From assembly GCA_029263235.1 (NCBI GenBank), contig JAJCXW010000200.1, positions 11,978 through 75,977 on the forward strand: 64,000 nucleotides of DNA, given 5' to 3'. A model generated the notes under the pieces. The model saw only the letters and a program-made list of their open reading frames with translations, was not told where the DNA came from and did not search any database. Within the stretch, counting starts at the first letter, position 1, and every line of letters begins with the position of its first letter. Of the stretch, positions 9,153-55,827 are shown in pieces. This DNA comes from Acidimicrobiales bacterium (GTDB taxonomy: Bacteria > Actinomycetota > Acidimicrobiia > Acidimicrobiales > Aldehydirespiratoraceae). The position numbers and the translations under genes are program-made.

Positions 9153-9161
9153 CAAGACAGT

Positions 9162-9195
9162 CCCACCATCAAAACAGCCCCACCATCAAAACAGC
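9162..9195. repeat. Perfect 17-bp tandem duplication (cccaccatcaaaacagc x2)
   Basis: Read directly: 9162-9178 is identical to 9179-9195. The second copy contains the rnhB stop (TGA, 9188-9186). Confidence 0.95.
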
Positions 9196-9908
9196 TCTAT
9201 TTGGGGCTCGGCTCCGGGATCGACCCTTGGGGTACGCGACCATCGCAGATCGTCCATGAACGACCAGCTTCGTCGATGCACCGAGCACGGGCCCATGGCG
9301 GCGAGTGCCGCCTTGTGGCGCGGACACGGATAGCCCTTGTTGGAGGCCATGTTGTAGCCGGGATGTTGCACGTGGAGCTTCCGCATGAGTCGATCCCTGG
9401 TGACTTTGGCGATGATCGACGCCGCCGCAATCGACAAGCTGATCGTGTCGCCCTTGACGATAGTGGTGGTGTCGATGCCATCGACGAACCTCCAGTTGCC
9501 GTCGACCAGCACATGGTCGACCGGCACGGCCAGACCATCGATAGCCCGACGCGCCGCCAGTTTCTGAGCGGCCGACATCCCCAGCGAGTCGCACTCGGCC
9601 GGCGATGCATGGCCGACCGAAATATGGTGGGCCCAGTCGACGACGCGGTCGTGCATGACCTCGCGTTCGGACTCCGTGAGCATCTTCGAATCGCGCACCT
9701 TGTAGAGCCTGCGATCTCGCGGCACGATCACCGCGGCAAGGGTGAGGGGGCCGGCCCACGACCCTCGTCCCACCTCGTCGATTCCCGCCACAAATCGATG
9801 TCCTGTATTCCAGAGATCATGCTCGAAGTCGAGACCAGGCGAGCGCCCCTTGAGCGAAGCCCGAAGAGAGGAGGATCGAGAGGAGGATCGAGGTGAGGAT
9901 CCGGCCAC
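9186..9908 (-). CDS. rnhB: Ribonuclease HII
   Basis: GIDEVGRGSWAGPL (DEDD active-site start), VRDSKMLTE, VDGN, AASIIAKVTRD, SNKGYP. Trimmed to the GTG at 9908, just after the upstream stop (9915-9913). The 380-aa track ORF is an Arg-rich N-terminal extension. Confidence 0.88.
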   Translation of the reverse strand: MAGSSPRSSSRSSSLRASLKGRSPGLDFEHDLWNTGHRFVAGIDEVGRGSWAGPLTLAAVIVPRDRRLYKVRDSKMLTESEREVMHDRVVDWAHHISVGHASPAECDSLGMSAAQKLAARRAIDGLAVPVDHVLVDGNWRFVDGIDTTTIVKGDTISLSIAAASIIAKVTRDRLMRKLHVQHPGYNMASNKGYPCPRHKAALAAMGPCSVHRRSWSFMDDLRWSRTPRVDPGAEPQIELF

Positions 9909-9912
9909 AGTT

Positions 9913-11568
9913 TCAGCCTTGGGCAATTGGCGCGGCCAGAAGCGCCTCTGATTGGCGTTCCGACGACGACCACGTCGGGTCGAGTCCCGAGCAGGTGATC
10001 CTGGCGGTCTCCGGGCCACCATCACGTTCCCAGAGGAGGGCCGGGCGGGCCCCGTGCCATCGGAGGCTGAACGACATCGTGCCGACATGGGTAACGAGGC
10101 CGCGCACATCGACGGTCTGCCCCAGCCAACTGGCTGGAACCGTCGGCAACAAGTCGACATAGCAGTCCTCCAACGGTCCGAGCAGACGATCGAGAACCGC
10201 CACCGCTCCCCGCGCCACCGGTGAACTCGGCCCGGCGGGCCCGGCTGACCCGGCTGGCCCGACTGACCCGGCCGAGTCTGCTGATGCTGCCCCTGCCGTC
10301 TGCCTCGGCCTGTTCTCGCTACTCCCACTGTTCCGGCGCGCAGCCAGCTGGCGCAGGTCGGCGGCCAGCCGAGAGTTGTTGCTTGCCGGAATCCGGTCCT
10401 GGTCCTGGCCCAGATTCAACTCCAGAGCCAGCGCCGCGGCCGATAGCGATGCCGAGTCGAGGGCATCGCCGGCAGAGTCGATCAGACCGCCGATCAGAAG
10501 GTCGAGACCCGACTCCTCGCCGGCCCGGAGCTCTCTCGATGCCAGCGCCAAGATTGCCGCGTTGGCAGTGGGCCCTTCCAGCAGCCCGTCCTCGGCCGCC
10601 ACAACGAGGGCTTGTCTGGCTCGATCGGCTTCGCCGTGAAGGCCTGCCGTGTCGAGGTGGGGGGCGGCTTCGGCTGCAACCAGCAGATCGGCCGAGCCGG
10701 CCGCCACCACCAGGTCGGGAACCACCCGTCGCCACGCCTCGCCCAGCTGCTTGTCGGGGACCTCGATCGTGGCGGCATTTCGAGTCACCGCCCGCCAGCC
10801 AGAAGCCAGATCGGCCGGTCTCACCGAAGCAACACCAGTGATCGGGTCAGTCGGAGCAGCCGGGTCAGCCGGGTTAGTCGGGTCGGTCGGGTCAGCCGGG
10901 CCGGGAATCACCATCATCAGCGATGCTTGGTGAGGCAAGGCGAACACCATTCCCGATTGGCCCCCCGACTCGTCGACATCGACTCCTGCCGACCGTGCTG
11001 TGGGTTCGTCGGCAATCTCTCGCCAGGCTCCGGCCGTCACCGCCCCGGCCCCACGAAACGGCGCGAGGATCACGCCGCTGTCGAGACGCATCTCAGACCT
11101 GTCGACGGTGAGGCGACTGGTCCGGCCCCGTCCACCAGTCCCCGACACATGCATCACACATCCCAAGGCGACACCACTCGGAGAGGCATTGACGAACTCG
11201 ACGACCAGGGTTCGGTCCAAGCCATCGACCGCCGAGCCGACCCGACAGATCAAGTCCCCACCCGGAATCCGCATAGCGGTCTCGAACACGGGAGTGTCGT
11301 CGATGCGGGTCTGACGAACCGCCGCTTCGTCGTGGGCAATGTGCCAACGATCATCGGCTCCGGCGCCCCATTCAAATCGCCAGGAGCCATCGAGCGCACC
11401 GATCGTGCCATCCGGCCCGACGATCGCCGTCGGCCCGTCGACATCACCGATGATCGTGCCTGTGATCGTTTCTGTGATCGGCTCAGCCCCGCCATCGTTC
11501 GCCCGGCGCGGCCAGATCGACTTACCCAACCTGATTGACCTGATTGACCTGATTGGTCCAGCCGGCAT
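9913..11568 (-). CDS. Hypothetical protein (551 aa) translationally coupled between gpsA and rnhB
   Basis: The ATG shares one base with the gpsA stop (cTGATGcc). Coding-like bias. Three internal 9-bp repeat arrays. I recognise no family. Confidence 0.65.
   Translation of the reverse strand: MPAGPIRSIRSIRLGKSIWPRRANDGGAEPITETITGTIIGDVDGPTAIVGPDGTIGALDGSWRFEWGAGADDRWHIAHDEAAVRQTRIDDTPVFETAMRIPGGDLICRVGSAVDGLDRTLVVEFVNASPSGVALGCVMHVSGTGGRGRTSRLTVDRSEMRLDSGVILAPFRGAGAVTAGAWREIADEPTARSAGVDVDESGGQSGMVFALPHQASLMMVIPGPADPTDPTNPADPAAPTDPITGVASVRPADLASGWRAVTRNAATIEVPDKQLGEAWRRVVPDLVVAAGSADLLVAAEAAPHLDTAGLHGEADRARQALVVAAEDGLLEGPTANAAILALASRELRAGEESGLDLLIGGLIDSAGDALDSASLSAAALALELNLGQDQDRIPASNNSRLAADLRQLAARRNSGSSENRPRQTAGAASADSAGSVGPAGSAGPAGPSSPVARGAVAVLDRLLGPLEDCYVDLLPTVPASWLGQTVDVRGLVTHVGTMSFSLRWHGARPALLWERDGGPETARITCSGLDPTWSSSERQSEALLAAPIAQG
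10229..10273. repeat. Five imperfect 9-bp units (ggcccggcg/ggcccggct/gacccggct/ggcccgact/gacccggcc)
   Basis: Read directly. Encodes SAGSVGPAGSAGPAGP in the 551-aa protein. Confidence 0.85.
10843..10896. repeat. Six imperfect 9-bp units (cgggtcagy-like)
   Basis: Read directly. Encodes PADPTDPTNPADPAAPTDP in the 551-aa protein. Confidence 0.8.
11531..11557. repeat. 9-bp tandem repeat ctgattgac x2 plus one degenerate copy
   Basis: Read directly. Encodes IRSIRSIR at residues 6-13 of the 551-aa protein. Confidence 0.9.
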
Positions 11569-43434: not shown

Positions 43435-44598
43435 TCAGCCCCCGCCGAAACGAGTCAGACGCTCCACGGCCTGGGGGATCAGCCGGAGCGCCGAATCCAC
43501 ATCGGCACGTGTGCTCGACGGCCCCAACGACAATCTCAGCGATCCGATCGCCAGATCGCGTGGAATACCCATCGACGCCAACACGTGGGACGGCTCTTGT
43601 GCCCCCGCCGAGCACGACGACGCTGCCGAGGCACGAAGACCGTGCGAATCGAGCAGGAACAGAAGGGCTTCGGCCTCGACCTGACGCAGACAGACATGCG
43701 CGAATCCGGCGGCAATGTGCGACATGTCGCCCTCGGGCGCGGCGCTGACCACCACCTGATCGCCGAGTCCGGCCACGAGTCCGTCCAGGAGACGATCACG
43801 AAGCTTCCGGACACGTGCCACATCGTCGTGGCGGACTCGGACCGTTGCATCGACCGCCGCCGCCAGAGCGACCGCCCCAGCCACATCGGGAGTCCCGGCC
43901 CGGCGACCCTGCTCCTGTCCCCCACCGAGAATCAGGGGATCGAGCTCCAGCCCACCGCGCACGATCAATGCGCCCGTGCCGACCGGGCCGCCGATCTTGT
44001 GTCCGGTGATCGAGATGAGATCGAACTCCTGGGTGGCGTCGGCGACATCGAGCCACTGCACGGCCTGAACCGCGTCGGTGTGCAACAGGGCACCTGGAGA
44101 TCGTTCCCGCACGGTTTCGGCGATCTCACCCAGCGGCGCCACAACGCCGATCTCGTTGTTGACCGCCATCACCGAGACGAGCGATACATCGGCGGCGGAG
44201 CCGAGAATCTCCGCCAGGTGACCCACATCGGGAACCCCATCGGGTCTGAGACGAAAGGTGAGTCCCCCGGCGTGCTCCACCGGCTCGAGCACAGCATGAT
44301 GCTCTCCGGCGCTGCAGACAACGGTGCCCCCACGTGAAGCCAACACTCCTCTGACCGCGAGATTATCGGCCTCGGATCCTCCGCTGGTGAACACCACCTC
44401 CGAAGCCTCACAGCCAATGGCTGCGGCTACGACGTCGCGTGCGTCGTCGAGAGCTCTCCGGGCGTCTCGAGAAGCCTTGTGGGCACCGGTGGGGTTGGCT
44501 TGGTGCAGGTTCGAGGCGGCGATCCATGCGTCGCGGGCCTCGTCGCGCAACGGCGAACTGGCTGCATGATCAAGGTAGATCTCATCGCCGTCCATCAC
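43435..44598 (-). CDS. Class V PLP-dependent cysteine desulfurase (IscS/NifS-like)
   Basis: PLP-Lys context ITGHKIGGPVGTGAL and a Cys loop SSCSAGAQEPSHVL. Immediately upstream of mnmA. Confidence 0.88.
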   Translation of the reverse strand: MMDGDEIYLDHAASSPLRDEARDAWIAASNLHQANPTGAHKASRDARRALDDARDVVAAAIGCEASEVVFTSGGSEADNLAVRGVLASRGGTVVCSAGEHHAVLEPVEHAGGLTFRLRPDGVPDVGHLAEILGSAADVSLVSVMAVNNEIGVVAPLGEIAETVRERSPGALLHTDAVQAVQWLDVADATQEFDLISITGHKIGGPVGTGALIVRGGLELDPLILGGGQEQGRRAGTPDVAGAVALAAAVDATVRVRHDDVARVRKLRDRLLDGLVAGLGDQVVVSAAPEGDMSHIAAGFAHVCLRQVEAEALLFLLDSHGLRASAASSCSAGAQEPSHVLASMGIPRDLAIGSLRLSLGPSSTRADVDSALRLIPQAVERLTRFGGG

Positions 44599-44631
44599 AG
44601 CAGCCTATGGACTCGAGCAACCGGCCCGGAC

Positions 44632-45411
44632 TCAGGTTCCGGGAGGCGGCGGCAACGACGATTGCGGCGGAGTCTCCGATTCCTGCTGTACGCGAGATGC
44701 CACACATGCCAGCCAGGTTTCGGGATGCAGCCCCTCGGGAGCTGGAGCATCGATGCTGGTGGACACCCGATCGGCGAGCTGAGTGGCCAACATGACCCGC
44801 GAATCATCGGAAAGTTCGGGTACTCGGATGATGAACGATCGGATCAGGGCGGTCTGGGAGATGTCGAGCGACGAGATGTCGAGCGAATCGACGATCGGAT
44901 GCATTCCCCACGGAGTGGGGATGTCGACCTCACGCTCGGCGATCGTCGAACGGCTCTGACGTTCCCGCACGACATAGGTGCCGGCTGCCATGTCGCCGAG
45001 TCGTTGCCCCTCGGCGTTGGTCAGCGCCGATACCACGGCGGCCCCGCCGAACGTGATCAGAATATCGATGATCTGCATCATGCTCCGGATGGCCGAATGG
45101 CGCAGCCTTACAGGTCCACCCTCGACGGTGATCACTCTCAGCCCCACTGCATATTTGCCGACGGTTCTCCCCCGCCAAATCGTCTCGAGAGCCATCGGGT
45201 AGAGAAACACCAGAGCGAAGACGAGGATCAACACGATGACCAAGGCGAACGTGGTGGATGCCACAGCAAGAGCGACGGCAAGGTTGGAGAACACTCCGAG
45301 CGCCACGACCAAAATGAAGGTGTCGATCATCCGCGCCAGCATCCGAGACGCGATACCAGCTCTCTCGAAGTCGAGTATCACCCCTTCGGGTGTGACTATC
45401 CCTCTCTCCAC
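44632..45411 (-). CDS. RDD-family membrane protein
   Basis: RMLARMIDTFILVVALGVF... then the RDD-type TM pair, and a soluble C-terminal half. GTG at 45411 chosen to avoid overlap with the divergent gene. Confidence 0.65.
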   Translation of the reverse strand: MERGIVTPEGVILDFERAGIASRMLARMIDTFILVVALGVFSNLAVALAVASTTFALVIVLILVFALVFLYPMALETIWRGRTVGKYAVGLRVITVEGGPVRLRHSAIRSMMQIIDILITFGGAAVVSALTNAEGQRLGDMAAGTYVVRERQSRSTIAEREVDIPTPWGMHPIVDSLDISSLDISQTALIRSFIIRVPELSDDSRVMLATQLADRVSTSIDAPAPEGLHPETWLACVASRVQQESETPPQSSLPPPPGT

Positions 45412-45432
45412 ACGATCTAACCTAGGCCCACA

Positions 45433-46467
45433 GTGGACGTCGATCAGTTCATCCGTCGAAACGAACCGGCATGGCAACGTCTGAGTGAGGTCACTCGATT
45501 GGTTCGTTCGCGTCGCTCCTCCAAGCGGCTCAACGGCGCCGAACTCGACGAGACCATCGAGCTCTACCAGCGGGTTTCGGCCCATCTCAGCTACTCACGC
45601 ACCTGGTACGGCGATGCTCCGATCACGTCGAGGCTGACCAGCCTCGTGGGCGATGCCAGAGCCGCCATCTACGGCCCCGGCGATCGCGGCGGAAACGCTC
45701 TGCTCAGATTCTTCTCACGCGAGTTCCCGGCGGCCGTGTGGCGGGGCCGGAAGTTTGTGCTGATAGCGGCCATGCTCCTACTGATCCCCGCTATCTACGT
45801 GGGGACCTGGATGACATTCTCCGACTCGGCCCTCGATGCGGCCGCCCCTTCGGCTCTACGCGAGTCCTATGTGCAGCAAGACTTCGCCGACTACTACTCC
45901 TCTCAACCCGCCGCCGAGTTCTCCACTCAGGTTCTCGTCAACAACATCCAGGTCTCATTCCTTGCCTACGCCATGGGGATCTTCGCCGGGGTGGGAACGA
46001 TCATCGTGCTGGTGGTCAACGGACTCGGGATCGGCCAGGCCGGAGGTCTGTTCCACGCAGCCGGGGAAGCACCACGATTCTGGGGATTGATACTCCCCCA
46101 TGGGTTGATCGAGATCACCGCGGTCTGCGTGGCCGGAGGAGCCGGACTCCAACTTGGGTGGGCGCTCATCAGCCCGGGTGATCACAGCCGGTCGGAGGCC
46201 GTGGCCCACGAGGGTCGCCATTCAGTGCCAGTGGTGGTCGGGCTCATCCTGGTGTTCATCATCGCCGGGCTGATCGAAGGCTTCGTGACCCCGAGCCCCC
46301 TCCCCACCTGGACCCGAGTCGGAATCGGAGTGGTGGTGGAGTCGACATTCATCCTCTATGTCGTGGGCTATGGCCGTCGAGCCGAAGCGGAGCTCGATCG
46401 GGCTGAACGCTCAGAGACGGCCGGTCGCCTTCACGTTGAGGTAGATGTCGGCCAGTCGGCCGGGTAG
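45433..46467 (+). CDS. SpoIIM-like (stage II sporulation protein M family) polytopic membrane protein
   Basis: MDVDQFIRRNEPAWQRLSEV helical head, then ~6 TM with GLILPHGLIEITAVCVAGGAG, typical of the family. Confidence 0.7.
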   Translation: MDVDQFIRRNEPAWQRLSEVTRLVRSRRSSKRLNGAELDETIELYQRVSAHLSYSRTWYGDAPITSRLTSLVGDARAAIYGPGDRGGNALLRFFSREFPAAVWRGRKFVLIAAMLLLIPAIYVGTWMTFSDSALDAAAPSALRESYVQQDFADYYSSQPAAEFSTQVLVNNIQVSFLAYAMGIFAGVGTIIVLVVNGLGIGQAGGLFHAAGEAPRFWGLILPHGLIEITAVCVAGGAGLQLGWALISPGDHSRSEAVAHEGRHSVPVVVGLILVFIIAGLIEGFVTPSPLPTWTRVGIGVVVESTFILYVVGYGRRAEAELDRAERSETAGRLHVEVDVGQSAG

Positions 46468-47730
46468 CTCTCCGGCCGGAGCGTCGACAACCAGAGCACC
46501 GAGGGATCGCAGCCCAGTAGCCGCCCGCTCACGATCCTTCAGAGCAGCTGCTGCCGCCGCCCGGCGTCGAGCCTGATCGCCGTCGGTCACCTCGCCCCGC
46601 GCCCAACCCACCACAGCGGGGTCGCTGGAGGCGGCCACCACGACCAGATGGGTCTTCGTCACGAGAGGCAGCGCCGGCAACAGGGTCTCGGTGACGACCT
46701 GAGCCACAAGGTCGGTGTGGATCACCAGCATGGTGCGCCTACGAAACCGGGCGAGAGTCGAGGCGAACGCGCTCTTGTAGTCGGACTCCACCAACGCTGG
46801 TTCGATGTCGAACATGGCGGACGTGACCGCCCCCAGCTGCGATCGTCGATTCGACGCCGCCAGCACCGTGTGCACGCTTCGGTCGAAGACCACGAGGCCA
46901 CACCGGTCGCCGATACCAGTGGCCACTGCCGTGAGGGTCATCGCCGCGTCCATGGCGTGTTCCAGACGGGGGACCTTCTCGACTCTTCCGGCCATCACCC
47001 GACCGGAATCGAGGAGATTGACCACCGTCTGGTTTCGCTCGGCACGAAAGGTGCGAACGATCGGATGACCAGCACGCGCCGTTGCCGCCCAGTCGACCCT
47101 CCTCGACTCGTCGTCGACCGTGTATTCACGAAGCTGATCAAACTCTGTGCCTGATCCGCGCAGCTTCGACGACCGAACACCGACGTGCAGAAGGCGAGCC
47201 CGATTGATCCGGATCTCGGCTTCCTTCCACGATCGGAAGTAGGGGTGAACCCGAATCTCCGCGGGTACCTGACGAATGCCTTGCCGGGCCATCAACCCGA
47301 GTCGTCCCTCGGCTCGAATCACCACCTCCGACACCTCAAACCTTCCGCGGCGGGCCGGCCGTACGGAGTTCCTCAACTCCGCTGTGGTGCGAGGTGGAAT
47401 CTCGAGGACAGACCTTCGGATTGTCGGCTGGAGTGAGGGCGCCAACTCATCGGCGACTCCGACCCGGAGGGTGCGATCGAGGGGATTCGACACGAACCAC
47501 GTGGCCTCGGACTCTCCCCCCATCGTGGCTATCATTGGAAGGTCGCGGCGAAACCCGACGGAATCAGGGGCCGGGGCGCTGACGAAGTCCTGCAGCGCCA
47601 GACCAAGCGACAGCAACAGCCAGCCCACCAGGGTCACCGGAGCAAGGTCGGGGGCCGCCACGGCCACCGCAATCTGCGCCACAGCGCCAACCGCTACGAG
47701 GACGGCCAGCCGACGGGTGGGCACGGGCAC
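46411..47730 (-). CDS. DUF58-family (VWA-like) protein, MoxR partner
   Basis: N-terminal TM pair and the DUF58 core GSGTEFDQLREYTVDDESRRVDWAATAR. Its 3' end overlaps the convergent SpoIIM-like gene by 57 nt. Confidence 0.85.
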   Translation of the reverse strand: MPVPTRRLAVLVAVGAVAQIAVAVAAPDLAPVTLVGWLLLSLGLALQDFVSAPAPDSVGFRRDLPMIATMGGESEATWFVSNPLDRTLRVGVADELAPSLQPTIRRSVLEIPPRTTAELRNSVRPARRGRFEVSEVVIRAEGRLGLMARQGIRQVPAEIRVHPYFRSWKEAEIRINRARLLHVGVRSSKLRGSGTEFDQLREYTVDDESRRVDWAATARAGHPIVRTFRAERNQTVVNLLDSGRVMAGRVEKVPRLEHAMDAAMTLTAVATGIGDRCGLVVFDRSVHTVLAASNRRSQLGAVTSAMFDIEPALVESDYKSAFASTLARFRRRTMLVIHTDLVAQVVTETLLPALPLVTKTHLVVVAASSDPAVVGWARGEVTDGDQARRRAAAAAALKDRERAATGLRSLGALVVDAPAGELPGRLADIYLNVKATGRL

Positions 47731-47742
47731 GATCGAGTCCCG

Positions 47743-48735
47743 TCAGCGGGGAACGGGTGTTGAGGCCAGGACAGAGTCGAGGACGGTCTCCACCGAGACA
47801 CCCTCGAGCTCGAGTTCGGGGCGCAGCAGTAGCCGGTGGCCCAGAGCGGGGCGAGCAATGGTCTTGACCTCGTCGGGAGTCACGAAGTCGCGGCCCGACA
47901 GCCAGGCCCAGGCCTTGGAGGCGTGAAGATGCGCCGCCGCCCCGCGGGGCGAGACTCCGAGCAACACCGCCGGATGTTCACGGGTCGCCCGGGCCAAATC
48001 GATCACGTAGCGCCGCACTGGGTCCTCCACGCGGAGGTCGACGATCGCACGACGGCCTGCCTCGAGATCGGCCACAGTGGCCACCGGGGTCACGCCGGCT
48101 CCAGAAATATCGTGGGGATCGAATCCCTCGTCGTGGCGTCGAACCACCTCTAGTTCCTGTTCGGCCGACGGATAGCCGACATCGAGCTTGAACATGAAAC
48201 GGTCGAGCTGAGCTTCGGGCAGCGGGTAGGTGCCTTCGTACTCGATCGGGTTCTGGGTGGCGATCACCACAAACGGCGACGGCAGAGGTCTGGTGACTCC
48301 ATCACCGGAGACCTGCCGTTCCTCCATCGCTTCGAGCAGGGCAGCCTGGGTCTTGGGTGGGGTGCGATTGATCTCGTCGGCGATCAACAGGTTGGTGAAG
48401 ACCGGGCCCTGACGGAACCTGAAGTCGCCTGTCCGGTCTAGGACGAGTTGGCCGAGCACATCGGAGGGCATCAGGTCGGGGGTGAACTGCACTCTCTTCA
48501 CATCCAGATCGAGAGCAGCTCCGAGTGTTTTCACCACAAGCGTTTTGGCGACCCCCGGCACCCCTTCCAGAAGTACGTGGCCCTTGACGAGAATCGCGGC
48601 GATCAGCCCGGAGACGATGCCGTCCTGGCCGACCACGACCTTGGAGACCTCGCGACGGACCGCTCGCACCGCGTCCAGAGATGAGTTGGCCGATGCGTCG
48701 GGCTCACCACCGATCGGATCGTCGGAATCAGTCAT
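47743..48735 (-). CDS. MoxR-family AAA+ ATPase
   Basis: Walker A GVPGVAKT, Walker B LLIADEINR, ATQNPIEYEGTYPLPEAQLDRF. ATG at 48735 overlaps the upstream stop by 8 nt. Confidence 0.92.
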   Translation of the reverse strand: MTDSDDPIGGEPDASANSSLDAVRAVRREVSKVVVGQDGIVSGLIAAILVKGHVLLEGVPGVAKTLVVKTLGAALDLDVKRVQFTPDLMPSDVLGQLVLDRTGDFRFRQGPVFTNLLIADEINRTPPKTQAALLEAMEERQVSGDGVTRPLPSPFVVIATQNPIEYEGTYPLPEAQLDRFMFKLDVGYPSAEQELEVVRRHDEGFDPHDISGAGVTPVATVADLEAGRRAIVDLRVEDPVRRYVIDLARATREHPAVLLGVSPRGAAAHLHASKAWAWLSGRDFVTPDEVKTIARPALGHRLLLRPELELEGVSVETVLDSVLASTPVPR

Positions 48736-49879
48736 CCTGAACCTCCTGGCACATTTGATCGAGTAGCCGAGCGAACTCGACGAGCTCACGGTCGTCGCGA
48801 ACATCGGTGGTCTTCAACACACGTATGATGGCATCAGCTTCCAGTTGGGACCGCGACTCCGCGATCTCGGCCAGCCGTTGGTCGGACACGTTCGGCGGCA
48901 GCCCGAGGGTTCGACTCAGATCTGTCCGGAATCCGGCCACCAGATGATCGACCGTCGCTGGCTGACCGAGCCGTCCGAGAAGACGGCCCCGAGCCAACAC
49001 CAGTTCGCTGCCGGCGATCTTCACCGGTTGGTCATCAGCAATCGGCCGGCCCAACCGTCTCGACTTGGCCAGCACGTACACGAGCCACGCCAGCGCCAGA
49101 TCGAGGGCCACCCAGCGCAAGTACTCGGGCATGAGATCGAACAGGCTTCGCGAGCCGTCACCGACTCGTCGGGCCCGACGCGGCGATCCATCTGGGGCCG
49201 GAGTGGCTGTGAACTCCGGTGCCCTCAGCGAACGACGGAGAACCGCCACAGCGGTATCGGAGGTCGGCGCCATGAGAGCGACCGCCAACACAGAGTTGTC
49301 GGCTTCGTCGAGGAGGTCGTTGTCGAACCCGCCACCCCCTCCGATCGATATCACCACACCATCGCCCCTACGACGGAGGTCGACGAAGGATGCGGACCGG
49401 TCGCCGAAACAGTGCCCGTCGGAGCCGGTGCTGTCGTAGAGAATCGCGCCCCGCACTCTCACGGTTTCGACTCCGCTGAGATCGCCAAGGTCGCCGAGGT
49501 CGCAGGATCCTCGGCCCAGCTCCGGCAGATCACCGTCCTCCGACGACTCGACGCCGGCGATCTCGGGCACGAACGGGGATCCCGGGTCGGTCACCACCAG
49601 CACGCCGCCGGCGAACACCCACGAATCGAGAGCCACTGTGGCTGTGAGATCGAGCCGGTCGACGAGGAGGACGGCCACCTCGACCTCCGGGCCGGGGACC
49701 TCTCCGAGGACCCGGGTCGGGATCGCGTACTCCTCGAGCAGCAGCACCAGGGCCTTGGCTCCGTCGGGATTGGTGCTGTCCGGGTCGAGCACCTCGGAGG
49801 AACGGGCACCGATGATCACGATCAGCAGCATTCCGACGGCGAGTACACCACCAATGACGAATCGGCCTCGCCGGGTCAT
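48728..49879 (-). CDS. DUF4350-like bitopic membrane protein
   Basis: N-terminal TM (FVIGGVLAVGMLLIVIIGA), ~230-aa exported domain, second TM (WVALDLALAWLVYVLA), cytoplasmic tail. Position between DUF4129 and MoxR is typical for this family. Confidence 0.65.
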   Translation of the reverse strand: MTRRGRFVIGGVLAVGMLLIVIIGARSSEVLDPDSTNPDGAKALVLLLEEYAIPTRVLGEVPGPEVEVAVLLVDRLDLTATVALDSWVFAGGVLVVTDPGSPFVPEIAGVESSEDGDLPELGRGSCDLGDLGDLSGVETVRVRGAILYDSTGSDGHCFGDRSASFVDLRRRGDGVVISIGGGGGFDNDLLDEADNSVLAVALMAPTSDTAVAVLRRSLRAPEFTATPAPDGSPRRARRVGDGSRSLFDLMPEYLRWVALDLALAWLVYVLAKSRRLGRPIADDQPVKIAGSELVLARGRLLGRLGQPATVDHLVAGFRTDLSRTLGLPPNVSDQRLAEIAESRSQLEADAIIRVLKTTDVRDDRELVEFARLLDQMCQEVQDD

Positions 49880-50562
49880 CGGGGCGTCGTCCCGACCAAG
49901 AGATCGGACTGGGCCAACAGCAGAGCAACCACTCGCCTGGCCTCCTCGAGCTCGGCCGCTCCGACCGGCTCGTCGCCGTAGTAGGCCTTCTCGAACGACA
50001 TCGTCACCTGATCGAAATCGACCGCTGAATCCGGCCGAACCTGTCCGAATTCCACTCGGTATTCGCCGGTGGTGCGCCCCGGCACGTCGAGCAGCACACC
50101 CTGTTGGATGAGGCTCGCCACCAAGTGCCGGTATCGCGCCATGAGGGCCTGCTTGAAGCGTCGGTCACGTTCGGCATTCTCGGCCGCCTCGATCAGGTCG
50201 GCGGGGTTGGAGACCTCGCCGAAGAGGACGACGATTCCATCGCCCACCTCGGGAGCCTTTCTCGCCCGGGCGGCTCTCCAGATTGCTCTGATGGCCAAGA
50301 ACAGCAGCAGAGCAGCGAACCCGATCAGCAAGACCTGGAAGACCTGACCCACGAACCCGGTGCCTGATCCCGAGCCCCCGAAGATACCGCCGAAGATGCC
50401 GGCCAACGTCGACGAGATCCAGTCGACGACACGTTCGAAGATGCTTCGATGGTCGCCGAATTCGGGCCGTTGGAGGATCTGTCGGGCCGACTCTCGGATT
50501 CGATCCGGGTCGTCGTTGGTGACCGGCAATCCGATCGTCGCCACCGTTGATGTCGCGGTCAT
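49876..50562 (-). CDS. DUF4129-like membrane-anchored protein
   Basis: TM VFQVLLIGFAALLLFLAIRAIW followed by a helical C-terminal domain (ALMARYRHLVASLIQQGVLLDVPGRTTGEY). ATGA overlaps at both ends. Confidence 0.65.
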   Translation of the reverse strand: MTATSTVATIGLPVTNDDPDRIRESARQILQRPEFGDHRSIFERVVDWISSTLAGIFGGIFGGSGSGTGFVGQVFQVLLIGFAALLLFLAIRAIWRAARARKAPEVGDGIVVLFGEVSNPADLIEAAENAERDRRFKQALMARYRHLVASLIQQGVLLDVPGRTTGEYRVEFGQVRPDSAVDFDQVTMSFEKAYYGDEPVGAAELEEARRVVALLLAQSDLLVGTTPR

Positions 50563-51542
50563 CGCGGGAACCGGTCGGCCATTGCCAGCTGAATGTCGAT
50601 TCCCTCTCGACGAATCCTCAGATCGAGATAGAAGGCGACGGTGGCAGCGGCAAGGAAGCTCGTCGACACGACACCACTGATCACTCCCCCGAGCGCCACG
50701 AGCACCCAACCTCCGTTGACTCCGATGACCAGTCCCAGAAGGGTCGGCAGCCCGCCCAACACCGCTCCGAGCACGGTGGCCACCAGGCCCGAGAACACGA
50801 AGAAGACCATCGCCGGCACGTAGCGCCCCCGCACGAGCCGTACCGATCGCTTGATCGCGGTGATTGGTCCGGCCTGCTCGACCGCCACCACGGGAGCGAC
50901 CACCAGCATCAGGACCGCCACGAGAAACGAGCCGATCAGTAGTCCGAACACGGCCAGAATCTCAAGGACGTGGACCAGAAACCACGCGATGAGCACGACA
51001 TGGATACGGCGACCGACCCCGAGAAGCAGTTCGGTCACGTCGGGATCCCGATCGGAGTACCAGGCGGCCACCAAGCCACCGATGGCCACGGCCGACAAGG
51101 CTTGGATCACCGACCCGGAGACGATCCCCACGACCGTCGAGTCGACGCGGCCGCTCAACGGTCCCGACGCGACGGTGGGGTCGCTGAACAGAAACTGACT
51201 GTCGAATCCGACCGAATCGCGTCGAAGGTAGGCCATCACCACCGCGACCGGAACCTGGAGCACCGCCACCAGACCGAGCAGCAGACCCGGGCGGGCCCGA
51301 ATCAACGAGAAGCCCGAGTCCAGGATCTCGAGCACCGACTGCGGGCGCAGCGGCAGCGGCCGGGGCATGGCATCGGGGTCGCCCCCGCCCGGAGACGACG
51401 GTGCAGAGCCGAAGAACGATTGAGGTGCCGGGGCCGACGGCTGCTCGACCCGAGAACCGGGAGCCGCCCATTGATCGTTCAATTCGCCTCCCGCATGCGT
51501 TGCCTGGTCCCGGCCCGACCCGACGCCGGACCGCTCCATCAT
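50559..51542 (-). CDS. Polytopic membrane protein with a Pro-rich N-terminus (GPDPase-membrane-domain-like), first gene of the MoxR operon
   Basis: About 6 TM helices after a ~70-aa P/S/G-rich head. Start ATG at 51542 or 51539. Confidence 0.6.
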   Translation of the reverse strand: MMERSGVGSGRDQATHAGGELNDQWAAPGSRVEQPSAPAPQSFFGSAPSSPGGGDPDAMPRPLPLRPQSVLEILDSGFSLIRARPGLLLGLVAVLQVPVAVVMAYLRRDSVGFDSQFLFSDPTVASGPLSGRVDSTVVGIVSGSVIQALSAVAIGGLVAAWYSDRDPDVTELLLGVGRRIHVVLIAWFLVHVLEILAVFGLLIGSFLVAVLMLVVAPVVAVEQAGPITAIKRSVRLVRGRYVPAMVFFVFSGLVATVLGAVLGGLPTLLGLVIGVNGGWVLVALGGVISGVVSTSFLAAATVAFYLDLRIRREGIDIQLAMADRFPR

Positions 51543-51564
51543 GCAACACGGCACACTGGGGGTG

Positions 51565-52320
51565 ATGCAGGGCTACCGATCCGACACCTACGGCGAGAGC
51601 TTCGCCGATGTCTACGACGACTGGTACGGCGAGGTGAGCGACGCGCCGGCAACTGTCGCCAAGATCCTCTCGATGGCTTCGGGAGGGGCCATGCTCGAAC
51701 TCGGAGTGGGTACGGGCCGCCTCGCCATCCCCTTGGCCGAGGCCGGCGCGGAGGTGGTGGGAGTCGACGCGTCGATACCGATGATCGAGAGGCTGGAGGC
51801 GAAGCCCGGCGGACGGCTCGTGAAGACGATCGTCGCCGACATGGCCGAGTTGCCGTTGAGATCAGACCAGTTCTCCGTGGCGTTCGCGGCGTTCAACACG
51901 TTCTTCAATCTCCCCACCGAGGCCGAGCAGTTGCGGTGTCTGGAGCGTCTCGCCGACACGATCCAGCCGGGGGGCGCCCTGGTCATCGAGGGCTTCGTTC
52001 CCCCTGAGGAGGGGCTCGCCGACAGTGGCGTGTCGGTTAGGGACGTGACCCTGGATGCGGCGGTTCTGTCGGTGTCGCGCCACGACCCCATCGATCAGAC
52101 GATCATGGGTCAACACATCGAGATCAACAGCTCCGGAGTTCGGATGCGTCCGTGGATGATCCACTACCTGACACCGAGGCAGCTCGATTCACTCGCGGTA
52201 AGTGCCGGGTTCGTGCTTGAAGACCGCTGGGGCGGCTGGGTCGACGAGCCTTTCGAACCGACGGGCGAGAGGCACGTGAGTGTCTACCGCCGGGTTCAGA
52301 AAATCGGATCGGCCCACTGA
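51565..52320 (+). CDS. Class I SAM-dependent methyltransferase
   Basis: Motif I MLELGVGTGRLAIPLA...VVGVDAS. Start is ATG 51565 (or 51541). Confidence 0.8.
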   Translation: MQGYRSDTYGESFADVYDDWYGEVSDAPATVAKILSMASGGAMLELGVGTGRLAIPLAEAGAEVVGVDASIPMIERLEAKPGGRLVKTIVADMAELPLRSDQFSVAFAAFNTFFNLPTEAEQLRCLERLADTIQPGGALVIEGFVPPEEGLADSGVSVRDVTLDAAVLSVSRHDPIDQTIMGQHIEINSSGVRMRPWMIHYLTPRQLDSLAVSAGFVLEDRWGGWVDEPFEPTGERHVSVYRRVQKIGSAH

Positions 52321-53180
52321 GACGCGGCCCAGATCGAACCCAACACGAACATCGCCGACATGAGGACCACGCCGGCATGAGCCGACCACTCGGGAAGGTT
52401 GGCGCGTACCACCCCGATGTAGAGAGCGGCCACCAGTGCTCCGGCGACCAGCCCACCGATGTGGCCCCCGATCGACACGCCCGGAATCAGAAAAGTGAAC
52501 GCCAAGTTGATGAGCATCACCCCACCCAGCCCTGATTGCCAGATGCTGATCCCCGACTTGCGTTGGATGACGATGATCGCGCCGAGCAAACCGAACACTG
52601 CCCCGGACGCCCCGATGGTTGGGGTTTGAGGGCTGACGAGCAGCACTCCCAGCGATCCACCGAGCATCGAAGCGAAATAGAGGCCGACGAAACGCGGCCA
52701 GCCAAGCGCCCGTTCGAGCTGTGGTCCCAGGATCCACAGGGCGAACATGTTGAACCCGATGTGCATGATGCCGTCGTGGAGGAATCCCGAGGTGATCAGT
52801 CGGTAGTACTCGCCTTCATCGACACCAAGACCTTCGACGCTGGTGCCGACCCGTTGGATCGCGGACGCGAACAGCGCACCGTCGCGCAGCGCCTCGTTTC
52901 CGAGCCGCAAGAATGATCCACCCATGTAGACCGAAACGAGGACACCCAGCAGATTGAGGCCGATCAGGATCTTGGTCACGATCGGATCAAATGCGACCGG
53001 ACCACGGATCACCCGTTGCGCTCCAGCTCCGAAACACTCTGGACAATGAAAGCCCACCGATGCCTGGTGCATGCACTCCGTGCAGATCGGTCTGCCGCAT
53101 CGCTGGCAGTTCACTCCTGCCGGACGGTGTTGGTGCCGATAGCAACTCGTGGCATTTGATTCGTCGTTCTGGGATTCCAC
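52296..53180 (-). CDS. Rhomboid-family intramembrane serine protease with an N-terminal zinc ribbon
   Basis: CYRHQ...CQRCGRPICTECM...CPEC, rhomboid HxxxN region (GFLHDGIMHIGFNM), catalytic GASGAVFGL and GGHIGG. Start is GTG 53180 or ATG 53240. Confidence 0.85.
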   Translation of the reverse strand: MESQNDESNATSCYRHQHRPAGVNCQRCGRPICTECMHQASVGFHCPECFGAGAQRVIRGPVAFDPIVTKILIGLNLLGVLVSVYMGGSFLRLGNEALRDGALFASAIQRVGTSVEGLGVDEGEYYRLITSGFLHDGIMHIGFNMFALWILGPQLERALGWPRFVGLYFASMLGGSLGVLLVSPQTPTIGASGAVFGLLGAIIVIQRKSGISIWQSGLGGVMLINLAFTFLIPGVSIGGHIGGLVAGALVAALYIGVVRANLPEWSAHAGVVLMSAMFVLGSIWAASQWADPIF

Positions 53181-53199
53181 GCCGCCGACAGTACCGGCG

Positions 53200-55827
53200 A
53201 TGAGGGACTCAGGCGCGGGTCTGGTTTCAGCGGCGACCATCGATCCGGCTGTAGGTTCGGAGACCGTGGAACACGCCGCTTTGTTCACCGAGCAACTCGA
53301 GGACCGCCTCGACCAGTTGGCGCGCACTCCGATGCTGCTCGTGGCCTGCGACTACGACGGCACGATTGCTCCGATAGTCGACGACCCGATGAAGGCCCTT
53401 CCTCTTCGCGAGACCGCGGTTGCACTTCGCAACATCGCCAACCTCCCCCACACCCACGTAGCCGTGATCTCCGGCCGGTCGCTCCGCGATCTCGCCGCTC
53501 TGTCCCGCCTTCCCGTCGAGATCCATCTCGTGGGATCCCACGGCACCGAATTCGACATCGACTTCGCGCTCGACCTCGATCCCGGGCTACGGGAGAAACG
53601 CCACGATCTGGTTGCCGGGCTCCACGACGCCTGTGACGAATTCGAAGGAGTCACGCTCGAGAAGAAGCCGACATCGGTGGCTGTTCACTACCGAATGGTG
53701 TCCGACAGCAAGGTGGAGGCGTTGCTGGAGAGAGTTGCTGGCGTGGCCGACATGATCGGCGATGTCACCGTCAGGCACGCCAAGATGGTCTGCGAACTCC
53801 TCTTGGTGCCAACCGACAAGGGTGAGGCCCTCGCCACGGTGAGAGGAACCGTAGGCGCCAACGCCGTCATGTTCCTCGGCGACGACATAACCGACGAGGA
53901 CGCGTTCGCCACCCTCCACGGCCCCGATATGGGGGTGAAGGTGGGAGATGGCGACACGTCGGCTCCCTACCGGATCGATTCGCCTCAGGATGTCGCGGTG
54001 CTGCTGGCGACACTGTGCGCCAAGCGAGCCGATTGGCTCGCCGGGGCCGGCGTCACCCCGATCGAGGCTCACTCGTTGCTGTCGGACCAGCGAACTGCAG
54101 CTCTGGTCACCCCCGACGCCCGAATCTCCTGGATGTGCGTTCCCAGGATCGATTCATCAGCCATCTTCGCCGAACTCCTCGGTGGGCCCGGAGCAGGCCA
54201 CTTCTCGGTCGAGGCCACCGGCACCAACTCGGCACCAGTGCAGACCTACGCCGGCGATTCGCTCGTGCTCCAGACCTCTTGGCCCGACGTCAAGGTCACC
54301 GACTATCTCGATTGCTCCGATGGCCGGCCCGACCGGATCTCGGGCCGCACCGACCTGGTACGGGTGATCGAGGGTGACGGCACGGCACGGATCGAATTCG
54401 CTCCCCGGCTCGACTTCGGCAGATTCCCCACTCAGCTCGAAGTTCGTGAAGGTGGCCTCGAAGTCGTCAATGCCACCGACCTGGTGGTTCTGAGATCACC
54501 GGGGGTCAGTTGGACGGTCGAGGACGCCGGTGTGCATCAGACCGCTTGGGCCGAAGTCGACCTCTCGGCCGGCTCCGTGACGCTCGAACTCAGATGCGGC
54601 ACGGCATCCATGCGCCCCGACCACAGCGACGAACAAACCCGCCGCAACTCCACCTCCGCCTACTGGTCCGACTGGGTCGATCGCCTCGACATTCCGGAAT
54701 CGGCCTCCGATCTCGTGCGCCGCTCCGCCCTCACTCTGAAGGCCCTCTGCTACGGGCCCACTGGAGCGATTCTCGCCGCTCCCACCACCAGTCTCCCCGA
54801 GTTCCTCGGAGGAGTTCGCAACTGGGACTACCGCTACTGCTGGATCCGCGATGCCTCACTAACCGCGGGTGCGTTGGTGAGGCTCGGGTCGATCGGCGAG
54901 GCCATGAATCTCCTCGACTGGCTGCTCCAGGTTCTCGAGACCATCGACACCGGACCGGAGAGACTCTCACCGCTCTATACCGTCAACGGCCACCAACTCC
55001 CGCCCGAAGCCACCATCGAAGAGCTTCCCGGATACGCGGGCTCTCGCCCCGTGAGAGTCGGAAACGCCGCCGATCACCAGGTCCAGCTCGACGTGTTCGG
55101 ACCGGTCGTCGATCTCATTCACCGCCTCGGAGAGGTCGACGCTCCGCTGTCGGCCCGACACTGGCGACTCGTCGAAGATCTGGTTGGCGCGGTGCGGCAA
55201 CGTTGGTCCGAGCCCGATCAGGGCATCTGGGAGATCAGAGCGGCCCCCCGACACCACGTCTACTCAAAGGTCATGTGTTGGGTCACCGTCGATCGGGCCG
55301 TTCATGTGGCCGAAAACGTGTTCGGTCGTGAACGCCCCGAGTGGAAAACGCTCCGCGATCTGATTGCCGACGACATCCTTCACAACGGGTGGAAGGAAGA
55401 GGTCGGAGCATTCACGGCCGCCTACGACGGCACCGACCTCGATGCCTCGGTTCTCATGGTCGGCCTGTCGGGTCTGGTCAAGCCCGACGATCCGAGATTC
55501 CAGTCGACCGTCGCTGCGGTCGAAGCCTCTCTCGGCGAAGGTCCGACTGTCTACCGCTACCGCCACGACGACGGTTTGCCGGGGAAGGAGGGCGGGTTCA
55601 ACATGATGACCTCGTGGCTCATCGACTCGAAGATCCTGATCGGCGACACGGCCGACGCCAGAGTTCTGTTCGAGCAACTCGTCGAACTGGCCGGGCCCAC
55701 CGGGTTGATGGCCGAAGAATACGATCCGGTGACCAGACGGGCACTGGGCAACCATCCTCAGGCCTACTCCCACCTGGGCTTGGTGCACAACGCCTGCAAC
55801 CTGAACGGCGCCCGGATCAGAGACTGA
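53200..55827 (+). CDS. Fusion protein: trehalose-6-phosphate phosphatase (HAD-IIB, OtsB) plus a GH15 glucoamylase/trehalase-like domain
   Basis: HAD motifs LLVACDYDGT, VISGRS, KPTSVAVHY, FLGDDITDEDAF. GH15 blocks follow: VRNWDYRYCWIRDASLT and LMAEEYDPVTRRALGNHPQAYSHLGLV. Start is uncertain (53149 or 53200). Confidence 0.85.
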   Translation: MRDSGAGLVSAATIDPAVGSETVEHAALFTEQLEDRLDQLARTPMLLVACDYDGTIAPIVDDPMKALPLRETAVALRNIANLPHTHVAVISGRSLRDLAALSRLPVEIHLVGSHGTEFDIDFALDLDPGLREKRHDLVAGLHDACDEFEGVTLEKKPTSVAVHYRMVSDSKVEALLERVAGVADMIGDVTVRHAKMVCELLLVPTDKGEALATVRGTVGANAVMFLGDDITDEDAFATLHGPDMGVKVGDGDTSAPYRIDSPQDVAVLLATLCAKRADWLAGAGVTPIEAHSLLSDQRTAALVTPDARISWMCVPRIDSSAIFAELLGGPGAGHFSVEATGTNSAPVQTYAGDSLVLQTSWPDVKVTDYLDCSDGRPDRISGRTDLVRVIEGDGTARIEFAPRLDFGRFPTQLEVREGGLEVVNATDLVVLRSPGVSWTVEDAGVHQTAWAEVDLSAGSVTLELRCGTASMRPDHSDEQTRRNSTSAYWSDWVDRLDIPESASDLVRRSALTLKALCYGPTGAILAAPTTSLPEFLGGVRNWDYRYCWIRDASLTAGALVRLGSIGEAMNLLDWLLQVLETIDTGPERLSPLYTVNGHQLPPEATIEELPGYAGSRPVRVGNAADHQVQLDVFGPVVDLIHRLGEVDAPLSARHWRLVEDLVGAVRQRWSEPDQGIWEIRAAPRHHVYSKVMCWVTVDRAVHVAENVFGRERPEWKTLRDLIADDILHNGWKEEVGAFTAAYDGTDLDASVLMVGLSGLVKPDDPRFQSTVAAVEASLGEGPTVYRYRHDDGLPGKEGGFNMMTSWLIDSKILIGDTADARVLFEQLVELAGPTGLMAEEYDPVTRRALGNHPQAYSHLGLVHNACNLNGARIRD

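Follow-up and report, generated by a model that had tools for sequence, protein, structure and literature searches.

The stretch of DNA analyzed here, called the window, comprises 64,000 nucleotides from an Acidimicrobiales bacterium of the lineage Aldehydirespiratoraceae (GenBank assembly GCA_029263235.1, contig JAJCXW010000200.1, positions 11,978 to 75,977 of the forward strand). The subject of this work is a cluster of seven genes within it, in which a MoxR-type AAA+ ATPase is encoded together with six membrane proteins. This cluster represents an ancient gene module that recurs in several phyla; the module is already annotated and has been partly discussed in print, and the copy in the window is no new kind of system. 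Five of the genes form a chain on the minus strand: a membrane protein gene, named memX here (50559..51482, 307 aa from the probable start TTG 51482), the DUF4129 gene (49876..50562, 228 aa, ATG start), the DUF4350 gene (48728..49879, 383 aa, ATG start), the MoxR gene (47743..48735, 330 aa, ATG start) and the DUF58 gene (46411..47730, 439 aa, GTG start). A SpoIIM-like gene on the plus strand (45433..46467, 344 aa, GTG start) converges with the chain and diverges from an RDD-family gene on the minus strand (44632..45411, 259 aa), whose GTG start was chosen by ortholog conservation.

The sequence was read base by base, and the seven open reading frames (ORFs) and all of their junctions agreed with those given in an earlier, sequence-only reading of this DNA. 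The stop codon of memX overlapped the DUF4129 start (ATG 50562) by 4 nt, as ATGA, and an ATGA overlap of the same length joined the DUF4129 stop to the DUF4350 start (ATG 49879). The DUF4350 stop (48728) and the MoxR start (ATG 48735, with AGGAGG close upstream) overlapped by 8 nt, and a gap of 12 nt separated the MoxR stop (47743) from the DUF58 start (GTG 47730). No terminator-like site was detected at the junctions of the chain when positions 44000-52500 were scanned, the sole match in this interval being within the memX coding sequence. The 3' ends of DUF58 (46411) and of the convergent SpoIIM-like gene (46467) overlapped by 57 nt (46411-46467). One strand of this overlap encodes the C-terminus of DUF58, which is conserved, and the other encodes the last ~24 residues of the SpoIIM-like protein, which are not. 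The same two 3' ends abut or overlap in other Acidimicrobiia loci too, mostly with offsets of -50 to ~+100 nt, and both transcripts should overlap in antisense because terminators have no room there. At its other end, the SpoIIM-like gene (GTG 45433) is separated from the divergent RDD gene (GTG 45411) by a spacer of 21 bp, read from the sequence (45412..45432). Since this spacer is too small for two full promoters, the promoters would extend into the coding sequences, or else the mRNAs would be leaderless.

The longest ORFs over-extended four of the genes (RDD to 45585, MoxR to 48804, DUF4129 to 50709 and memX to 51554), and the long antisense ORFs, such as the one at 48845-49981 on the plus strand, corresponded to chance expectation at 65% G+C. 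Rfam and tRNA scans of the window found nothing. Profile searches in Pfam supported six of the seven family calls (RDD, SpoIIM, DUF58, MoxR as AAA_3 plus lid, DUF4350 and DUF4129), so that the assignments of DUF4350, DUF4129, SpoIIM and RDD, previously made by eye, turned out to be right; an NCBIfam search of the module proteins gave nothing specific beyond Pfam. Hydropathy analysis placed two membrane helices in the DUF58 protein, two in DUF4350, one or two in DUF4129, six in memX, five or six in the SpoIIM-like protein and three in RDD. Every partner of the ATPase thus carries membrane helices, as had been claimed, and MoxR, in which no credible helix was seen, is the only component without one and is cytoplasmic.

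The conservation of the cluster in the class Acidimicrobiia was surveyed by a SpoIIM alignment scan with one genome per species. Eighty loci were kept, all Acidimicrobiia-like, and 59 of them had enough flanking sequence to judge the genes of the chain. All five chain genes were present in 46 of these 59 loci and four in another six, where the missing gene was always the fast-evolving DUF4129 or memX. The RDD gene adjoined the SpoIIM-like gene in all of the loci in which this could be evaluated (75/75). The nearest genome locus, from an Acidimicrobiales metagenome-assembled genome (L007), encoded seven proteins 83-95% identical to those of the window. Furthermore, five metagenome loci with DUF4350 proteins of 25-33% identity had the same seven genes in the same order, and a 4-nt overlap was found at both the DUF4129/DUF4350 and the DUF4350/MoxR junctions in all five. 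Median identity to the window was 68% for MoxR, 55% for DUF58, 55% for SpoIIM, 42% for RDD and ~33-35% for DUF4350, DUF4129 and memX. The flanks, with a methyltransferase and a rhomboid gene on one side and IscS and MnmA on the other, are also conserved in the class. Conservation within the class is therefore, by itself, weak evidence for a shared function, since it partly reflects inherited gene order.

Loci in other phyla were found by a tblastn search of the SpoIIM-like protein against a plasmid collection, which reached megaplasmids and mislabelled chromosomes; several of the 'plasmid' records are really chromosomes, among them those of Nonomuraea (11.85 Mb) and Nocardia (2.66 Mb). In Nonomuraea gerenzanensis (Streptosporangiales) all seven genes occurred in the same order and on the same strands, with memX matching at 6e-43. 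Nocardia farcinica had memX (2e-8), DUF4129 (1.4e-11), MoxR, DUF58 and an inverted RDD/SpoIIM pair. A plasmid of Rhizobium leguminosarum carried the co-directional string DUF805-DUF4129-DUF4350-MoxR-DUF58-SpoIIM-RDD, with junctions that overlap or abut, and Catenovulum adriaticum (Gammaproteobacteria) the co-directional, overlapping string RDD-SpoIIM-hyp515-DUF4350-MoxR-DUF58. A divergent RDD and SpoIIM, a six-helix protein, a one-helix protein, DUF4350 (2.6e-23), MoxR and DUF58 were encoded in Prevotella (Bacteroidota), and Bernardetia and Arthrobacter had the RDD/SpoIIM pair only. Recurrence across phyla indicated that the arrangement is not due to chance, and the tight coupling of the same families despite altered gene order pointed to a functional module. 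The co-occurrence of the genes, put forward for checking by the sequence-only reading, was thus confirmed well beyond this genome, and in Proteobacteria the coupling is co-directional and includes SpoIIM and RDD.

Some of the proteins at these loci were more difficult to place. No significant Pfam family was found for the Prevotella proteins hyp336 and hyp204, for Catenovulum hyp515 or for the extension of the Bernardetia SpoIIM protein. Profiles of memX and DUF4129 built from Acidimicrobiia only gave weak scores against their positional equivalents, and a wider memX profile reached an E of 0.002 in Catenovulum and of 8 in Prevotella, with no match in Bernardetia. The SpoIIM-family protein of Bernardetia sp. 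(L087, 8001-9854) has 617 aa, of which ~300 form a C-terminal extension that adds at least four membrane helices; a SpoIIM-memX fusion was considered for it and found to be unsupported, as neither Pfam nor the memX profiles matched the extension. In Nocardia farcinica NCTC11134 (L090, 4208-5869) the ORF with the DUF4129 domain runs ~230 residues further, to the MoxR start. The window DUF4350 protein had no tblastn match in this locus at E<=0.01; the extension may represent a DUF4350 that has diverged or become shorter, a fusion, or a frameshift introduced in the assembly.

The same comparison bears on the main rival explanation, in which the locus would hold two separate neighbouring units, namely a MoxR/DUF58 operon of five genes, three of them for membrane clients (memX, DUF4129 and DUF4350), and an independent SpoIIM-like/RDD pair. 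In the window, the SpoIIM-like gene is transcribed towards the chain and the RDD gene away from SpoIIM, which places them in other transcription units. No chain gene was present in 7 of the 59 Acidimicrobiia loci (L028, L031, L044, L057, L059, L064 and L071, about 9001-9950 in each). These keep the order MnmA-IscS-RDD<->SpoIIM at the orthologous position, synteny ends right after SpoIIM, and neither a MoxR chain nor a methyltransferase was found within 9 kb downstream. RDD and SpoIIM can therefore exist without an adjacent MoxR chain, as the isolated pairs of Bernardetia and Arthrobacter also suggest, and in several loci 1-2.6 kb of inserted DNA separates SpoIIM from DUF58. Nevertheless, SpoIIM and RDD belong to the same co-directional overlapping string as MoxR and DUF58 in Rhizobium and Catenovulum, where the gene order is altered, and SpoIIM likewise belongs to the MoxR/DUF58 string in Prevotella. 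Moreover, Makarova, Galperin and Koonin (2015; PMC5898192) independently noted that bacterial SpoIIM homologs adjoin vWA and COG0714 genes. On balance, the division into two units was considered unlikely.

A counterpart of the cluster has already been annotated in mycobacteria. In a table of PMC8191103, the M. chelonae genes for a membrane protein, DUF4350, MoxR, DUF58, SpoIIM and RDD are matched to Rv3689, Rv3691, Rv3692 (moxR2), Rv3693, Rv3694c and Rv3695 of M. tuberculosis, and these matching product names identify the window cluster as the counterpart of the mycobacterial moxR2 locus Rv3689-Rv3695. By published annotation, the families and their order are the same, and SpoIIM (Rv3694c) is on the opposite strand; the assignment of Rv3690 as the DUF4129 gene is suggested by its position. 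The counterparts in M. chelonae and M. abscessus were grouped with this locus. The M. tuberculosis locus belongs to the class Actinomycetes and is flanked by glpK, whereas the locus described here belongs to Acidimicrobiia and is flanked by IscS/MnmA and the methyltransferase. The Nonomuraea locus, with all seven genes, and the Nocardia locus provide sequence-level support for the module in the class Actinomycetes. Several observations concern the mycobacterial genes: Rv3694c and Rv3695 co-purified with the divisome protein Rv0954 in a pull-down (PMC8093794), Rv3691 was needed for the slow growth of bacille Calmette-Guérin (BCG) in a transposon site hybridization (TraSH) screen, and Rv3690 carried one single-nucleotide variant in a D-cycloserine-resistant double mutant. 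Full-text searches found no paper giving the cluster a substrate, a partner structure, a phenotype or a function, in agreement with what the sequence-only reading had stated. Its further suggestion of an undescribed system did not hold, given the correspondence to Rv3689-Rv3695 by annotation and the complex of DUF4350, MoxR and vWA proteins predicted by Makarova et al. in 2015.

With regard to the individual proteins, the ATPase matched the Pfam models AAA_3 (9e-62, 207 bits) and AAA_lid_2 (3e-23, 81.6 bits), and its catalytic motifs, those of the sensor and the arginine finger included (Walker A GVPGVAKT, Walker B ADEINR, ATQNP, LDRF and SPRG), were kept in 72 orthologs. Its sole PDB relative by sequence was the structural-genomics entry 2R44 (1e-76). 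The protein encoded next to it, whose gene adjoins the MoxR gene in all related loci, matched DUF58 (PF01882; 1.4e-22, 80.4 bits against a cut-off of 23.4), with VWA_2 below the cut-off (19.8 against 27 bits), and no PDB relative of it was found by sequence search. By hydropathy, its membrane helices (8-26 and 32-50) form an N-terminal hairpin and its N-terminus is basic, so that the globular vWA-type part should be cytoplasmic, on the same side as MoxR. The residues D241-S-G243-R244-V-M246 were found at the position of the metal ion-dependent adhesion site (MIDAS) instead of D-x-S-x-S. The pattern D-x-G-[RK]-x-M was invariant or nearly so in 76 DUF58 sequences, those of Rhizobium, Catenovulum and Prevotella included, and both serine positions were lost in all 76, which come from four phyla or classes. 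Having lost these serines, the DUF58 adaptor is unlikely to use a MIDAS metal.

This replacement weakened the view, mentioned in the sequence-only reading, of MoxR and DUF58 as a metal-insertion pair. A classical MoxR/vWA activase, inserting a metal or a cofactor into an enzyme as NorQ/NorD, CoxD/E/F and CbbQ/O do, would be in keeping with the family of the ATPase, with its vWA-type partner and with the general view of the family. Nevertheless, in addition to the loss of the MIDAS serines, no metalloenzyme gene was conserved beside the module in any phylum examined and every partner is a membrane protein, so that such an activase appears highly improbable here. Even less can be said for a role in phage defence or conflict of the kind played by ternary MoxR-vWA systems; we regard this as scarcely credible. 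MoxR-vWA pairs do occur in conflict systems (Kaur et al. 2020, as cited in PMC12067865) and the bpMoxR model of Pfam also matched the ATPase (1.4e-9), but it did so with 38 bits as compared to 207 for AAA_3. A PADLOC search of the seven proteins was negative, Pfam detected neither an effector nor a beta-propeller or VMAP partner, and the neighbourhood is of a stable, housekeeping kind across the class, with no sign of mobility.

The product of memX had no Pfam family of its own, with 10.1 bits against a cut-off of 29.6 in a test of the GPDPase_memb/UPF0259/DUF975-like group. A profile of its homologs collected 35,081 cluster representatives at E<=1e-3 from 1.84 billion proteins. Among 75 relatives (profile E<=1e-58), 29 matched GPDPase_memb, with 9.7e-9 as the best value, and others matched DUF7847, UPF0259, DUF6159, DUF975 or DUF7544. 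These matches suggested that memX may be a diverged member of the GPDPase_memb/UPF0259/DUF975 group of six-helix membrane proteins. In its AlphaFold2 model (predicted local distance difference test, pLDDT, 78; predicted template modelling score, pTM, 0.74), weak and not significant likenesses to CTL1/PNS1, which are choline-transporter-like, and to CysZ were found with Foldseek against the PDB (E 0.1-1). Near the N-terminus, the ortholog alignment revealed a shared motif, (M)xDxW-x-PGS, and behind it a Pro/Ala/Ser linker that varies. Another conserved motif, Y-x-D-x-R-x-R-x-E-G-x-D, is present at the C-terminus. The overlap of the memX stop with the next gene was as described in the sequence-only reading, but the start at 51542 given there was not upheld. 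In the window, TTG 51482 is the first codon of the N-terminal motif and is preceded by GGGAGG, and from the motif and this box memX probably starts at this codon and not at 51542 or 51554, positions that the ORF could also reach. A start at ATG 51368 was rejected because the orthologs share the N-terminal D-x-W-x-PGS motif, and codon-position statistics for codons 1-58 were ambiguous. The gene divergent from memX encodes a class I S-adenosylmethionine (SAM) methyltransferase (51541-52320, plus strand). It lies 58 bp from the proposed memX start, and there would be no spacer, or a short overlap, if memX started at 51542 or 51554.

The SpoIIM-like protein matched Pfam PF01944 along the whole model (positions 1-163 of 163; 2.8e-42, 144.9 bits against 26.9). 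Its orthologs have precomputed matches to DUF8413 and SpoIIM, the former being a cytoplasmic N-terminal helical domain, and the ortholog alignment supported the GTG 45433 start. Invariant polar residues were located in the membrane part (NN170-171, PHG222-224, E227, E282 and TPS286-288). No PDB relative was found by sequence search. In Bacillus subtilis, SpoIIM, which is part of the engulfment complex SpoIID/SpoIIM/SpoIIP, scaffolds the cell-wall hydrolases SpoIIP and SpoIID, and the SpoIIM family is present in many non-sporulating organisms (PMC5898192). The protein of the window belongs to the same Pfam family and is also a polytopic membrane protein; it differs in its Acidimicrobiia host, in the extra N-terminal DUF8413 and in being paired with RDD and with MoxR/DUF58. 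SpoIID and SpoIIP families were not matched by any of the seven module proteins, and neither annotation occurred among the genes around the related loci. The RDD protein (PF06271; 6.5e-18, 65.8 bits against 24.1) has a conserved GQRLGD..AGT motif and, by hydropathy, a cytoplasmic C-terminal region of ~110 aa after its three membrane helices, and ortholog conservation begins at residue 4 from GTG 45411. For Campylobacter, the pairing of an RDD protein with a C40 peptidase has been predicted (PMC13181095).

Another possibility is that the module regulates the transport of ions or small solutes, RDD and memX being transporters assembled or gated by MoxR/DUF58. Na+(Li+,K+)/H+ antiporter activity was reported for one protein of the RDD family (PMC5996927), and the fold of memX has the weak likeness to CysZ and to choline-transporter-like proteins mentioned above. 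However, this report stands alone and concerns a distant member of the RDD family, the likenesses of memX are below significance, and the outside domain of DUF4350 and the SpoIIM-like protein would be left unexplained. We therefore considered a transport function improbable.

The DUF4350 protein gave a marginal Pfam match (PF14258; 1.3e-7, 32.6 bits against a cut-off of 30.4), and a precomputed match to the same family was present in 66 of 66 homologs. Word-indexed protein searches with it, either as a single sequence or as a profile, returned matches confined to the same clade, and tblastn against the plasmid collection returned none. In its AlphaFold2 model (pLDDT 86.8), the protein starts with a membrane helix and continues into an alpha/beta domain (~30-220), which is predicted to be outside the membrane; another membrane helix (252-275) then leads to a helical tail (290-382) that is predicted to be cytoplasmic. 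Foldseek related the alpha/beta domain to the trimerisation domain of GH42 beta-galactosidase, to GH164 and to the N-terminal GIFT domain of IFT52 (5fms_B), with E values of 2e-4 to 1e-2, in agreement with the HHpred result of 2015 (PMC5898192). The domain thus models as a GIFT/GldG-like, flavodoxin-like alpha/beta fold that is non-catalytic-looking, and in the predicted topologies it is the only sizeable part of the module outside the membrane. C126 was invariant in it and C157 nearly so, and this cysteine pair is in line with a location outside the membrane. After the second helix, R275 was invariant and G277, P279, E282 and P285 were nearly invariant, within the motif R-R-L-G-x-P...E-x-Q-P.

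The next protein matched DUF4129 (PF13559; 2.7e-11, 43.8 bits against 24.8) at residues 192-260 of the long ORF. Hydropathy placed a membrane helix at 77-95, and the basic stretch that follows it (RAIWRAARARK) indicated that the C-terminal helical DUF4129 domain is cytoplasmic. The 76 N-terminal residues may be outside the membrane or may form a second helix of a hairpin. The idea that the cytoplasmic tail of DUF4350 is a DUF4129 homolog was rejected, as hhalign gave an E of 0.26 on the soluble parts, and only the membrane helix and the basic stretch aligned (47% probability).

The closest published proposal is that of Makarova et al. (PMC5898192), who described the archaeal DUF4350 family (arCOG01314) as GldG-like, found it in operons with the COG0714 ATPase and a vWA protein, and predicted a new secretion or membrane-remodelling complex. 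The combination of DUF4350, this ATPase and vWA in one operon is also present here, as is the build of the archaeal protein, in which a signal-anchor precedes the GldG-like outside domain and a membrane helix lies towards the C-terminus. In contrast, the archaeal neighbourhoods add S-layer/Ig-like membrane proteins (arCOG02884, arCOG03442 and arCOG02487), and S-layer/Ig-like domains were not present in the seven module proteins or in the flanking genes. Furthermore, the vWA protein is secreted according to PMC5898192, whereas the hairpin of the DUF58 protein places its vWA domain in the cytoplasm. A term search of the main text of that paper returned no mention of RDD, and literature searches for DUF4129 did not return the paper.

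Following this proposal, the module could be a secretion or surface-assembly system in which an exported polymer or protein is handled by the GldG-like domain, with assembly under the control of MoxR. The GIFT/GldG-like fold of the outside domain, obtained with Foldseek here and with HHpred there, would suit such a role, as would the membrane nature of all the partners and the faint resemblance of memX to transporter folds (CTL1 and CysZ). However, no exported substrate, S-layer/Ig-like protein, channel or outer component was found in the window or in the related loci, and the fold matches of memX are below significance. To our knowledge, MoxR ATPases do not act as translocation motors. A secretion function was thus judged quite unlikely.

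Relatives of the module are also found among the operons of the MoxR-proper (MRP) subfamily, which is described in general terms in PMC12067865. As in such operons, an AAA_3-type MoxR gene stands here directly before a DUF58 gene and the partners are membrane-anchored. Examples, which we take to be of this type, are the Bat operon of Bacteroides and Borrelia, RL3499-RL3502 of Rhizobium and moxR1-Rv1480-Rv1481 of M. tuberculosis. With Pfam, neither BatA/BatB vWA membrane proteins nor TPR proteins were found among the seven proteins, unlike in a Bat-type operon; the partners here are DUF4350, DUF4129, memX, the SpoIIM-like protein and RDD, and the DUF58 protein lacks the MIDAS serines. The bifidobacterial PFNA operon (MoxR-DUF58-transglutaminase) is described in PMC12067865, where MoxR1 is also reported to assist RipA. 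The arrangement of the PFNA operon and of TgpA resembles the present one in that a MoxR and DUF58 engine is coupled to a membrane protein with an outside domain. TgpA-type transglutaminases end in a DUF4129 domain after the last membrane helix, which would parallel the DUF4129 protein of the module. No transglutaminase domain is present here, and the outside domain is GIFT/GldG-like and non-catalytic-looking instead.

The reading that we prefer, with a probability of roughly 45%, is that the MoxR/DUF58 engine acts on the co-encoded membrane partners and thereby assembles or switches an envelope-associated complex. A cytoplasmic MoxR AAA+ hexamer and the membrane-tethered, vWA-type DUF58 adaptor would make up the engine, memX, DUF4129 and DUF4350 would be membrane proteins translated together with it, and the SpoIIM-like protein and RDD would form a membrane pair. 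DUF58, together with those domains of DUF4129 and DUF4350 that face the cytoplasm, would transmit the hydrolysis of ATP by MoxR to the membrane proteins, and a membrane complex including memX and usually the SpoIIM-like protein and RDD would be assembled or switched in this way. The output would be a remodelling of the cell envelope, most likely through control of a SpoIIM/RDD platform, which would position or regulate proteins that modify the cell wall. The gene set with its coupling and its spread, the intact ATPase motifs and the lost MIDAS serines are direct observations, and the fold and topology of DUF4350 are predictions from its model and from hydropathy. We infer the contacts between the proteins, the signal from inside to outside and the envelope or cell-wall target; the link to the cell wall is suggested by the B. 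subtilis SpoIIM protein, the Rv0954 pull-down and the prediction for RDD and the C40 peptidase, and the reported assistance of RipA by MoxR1 is another lead towards the envelope. A more detailed form of this reading, which is attractive but doubtful, would be a single inside-out machine, ancient and widespread in bacteria, made up of all seven families. In it, a MoxR hexamer docked through the metal-less DUF58 protein would pull on the tails of DUF4350 and DUF4129 and switch the GIFT domain and the SpoIIM/RDD/memX platform, so that cell-wall hydrolases or surface assembly would be controlled at the division site.

Several points weigh against the action of the engine on an envelope complex. 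Binding between the module proteins is an assumption of this reading. The RDD/SpoIIM pair stands alone in 7 of the 59 loci and in Bernardetia and Arthrobacter, and the engine is hence not strictly needed for it. The cell-wall link comes from distant homologs and one pull-down list, and there is no hydrolase gene in the module. Outside Actinomycetota, the putative equivalents of memX and DUF4129 were recognized by position, topology and weak profile scores, and the inherited gene order within the class has already been noted. The single stoichiometric machine proposed in the sequence-only reading was thus backed in part only, given that the RDD/SpoIIM pair also occurs without the chain.

Regarding the genes that surround the module, the methyltransferase adjoins it in 5/5 metagenome loci and in several Acidimicrobiia genome loci, but not in Rhizobium or Catenovulum. 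Beyond it, a rhomboid protease homolog is encoded on the minus strand (52296-53327), with a weak, sub-threshold match to a B-box zinc finger at its N-terminus, and a rhomboid gene was also located upstream of the module in the Acidimicrobiia metagenome loci L002-L005. An 892-aa protein encoded at 53149-55827 on the plus strand has a trehalose-phosphatase domain fused to a TREH_N and GH15 trehalase-like part. The same fusion was present in L002, while L003 and L004 have the TREH_N and GH15 part only.

Of the bacterial AAA+ systems still without a known job, MoxR/DUF58 operons rank with the most widespread, and the version described here spans Actinomycetota (with M. tuberculosis by annotation), Bacteroidota and both Alpha- and Gammaproteobacteria. 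The hypotheses on its function are narrowed by three points: the MIDAS of DUF58 is replaced throughout the module, DUF4350 is predicted to consist of an outside domain, a membrane helix and a conserved cytoplasmic tail, and the RDD/SpoIIM pair is separable from the rest. The probable placement of memX in the GPDPase_memb group is a further detail of note. If the inside-out machine were true, it would be the first defined mechanism for the MoxR-DUF58 class and would give a function to the moxR2 locus of M. tuberculosis. Given the broad spread of the module, thousands of genes would be annotated once its function became known in a single tractable host, for which M. smegmatis or the plasmid copy of Rhizobium could serve.

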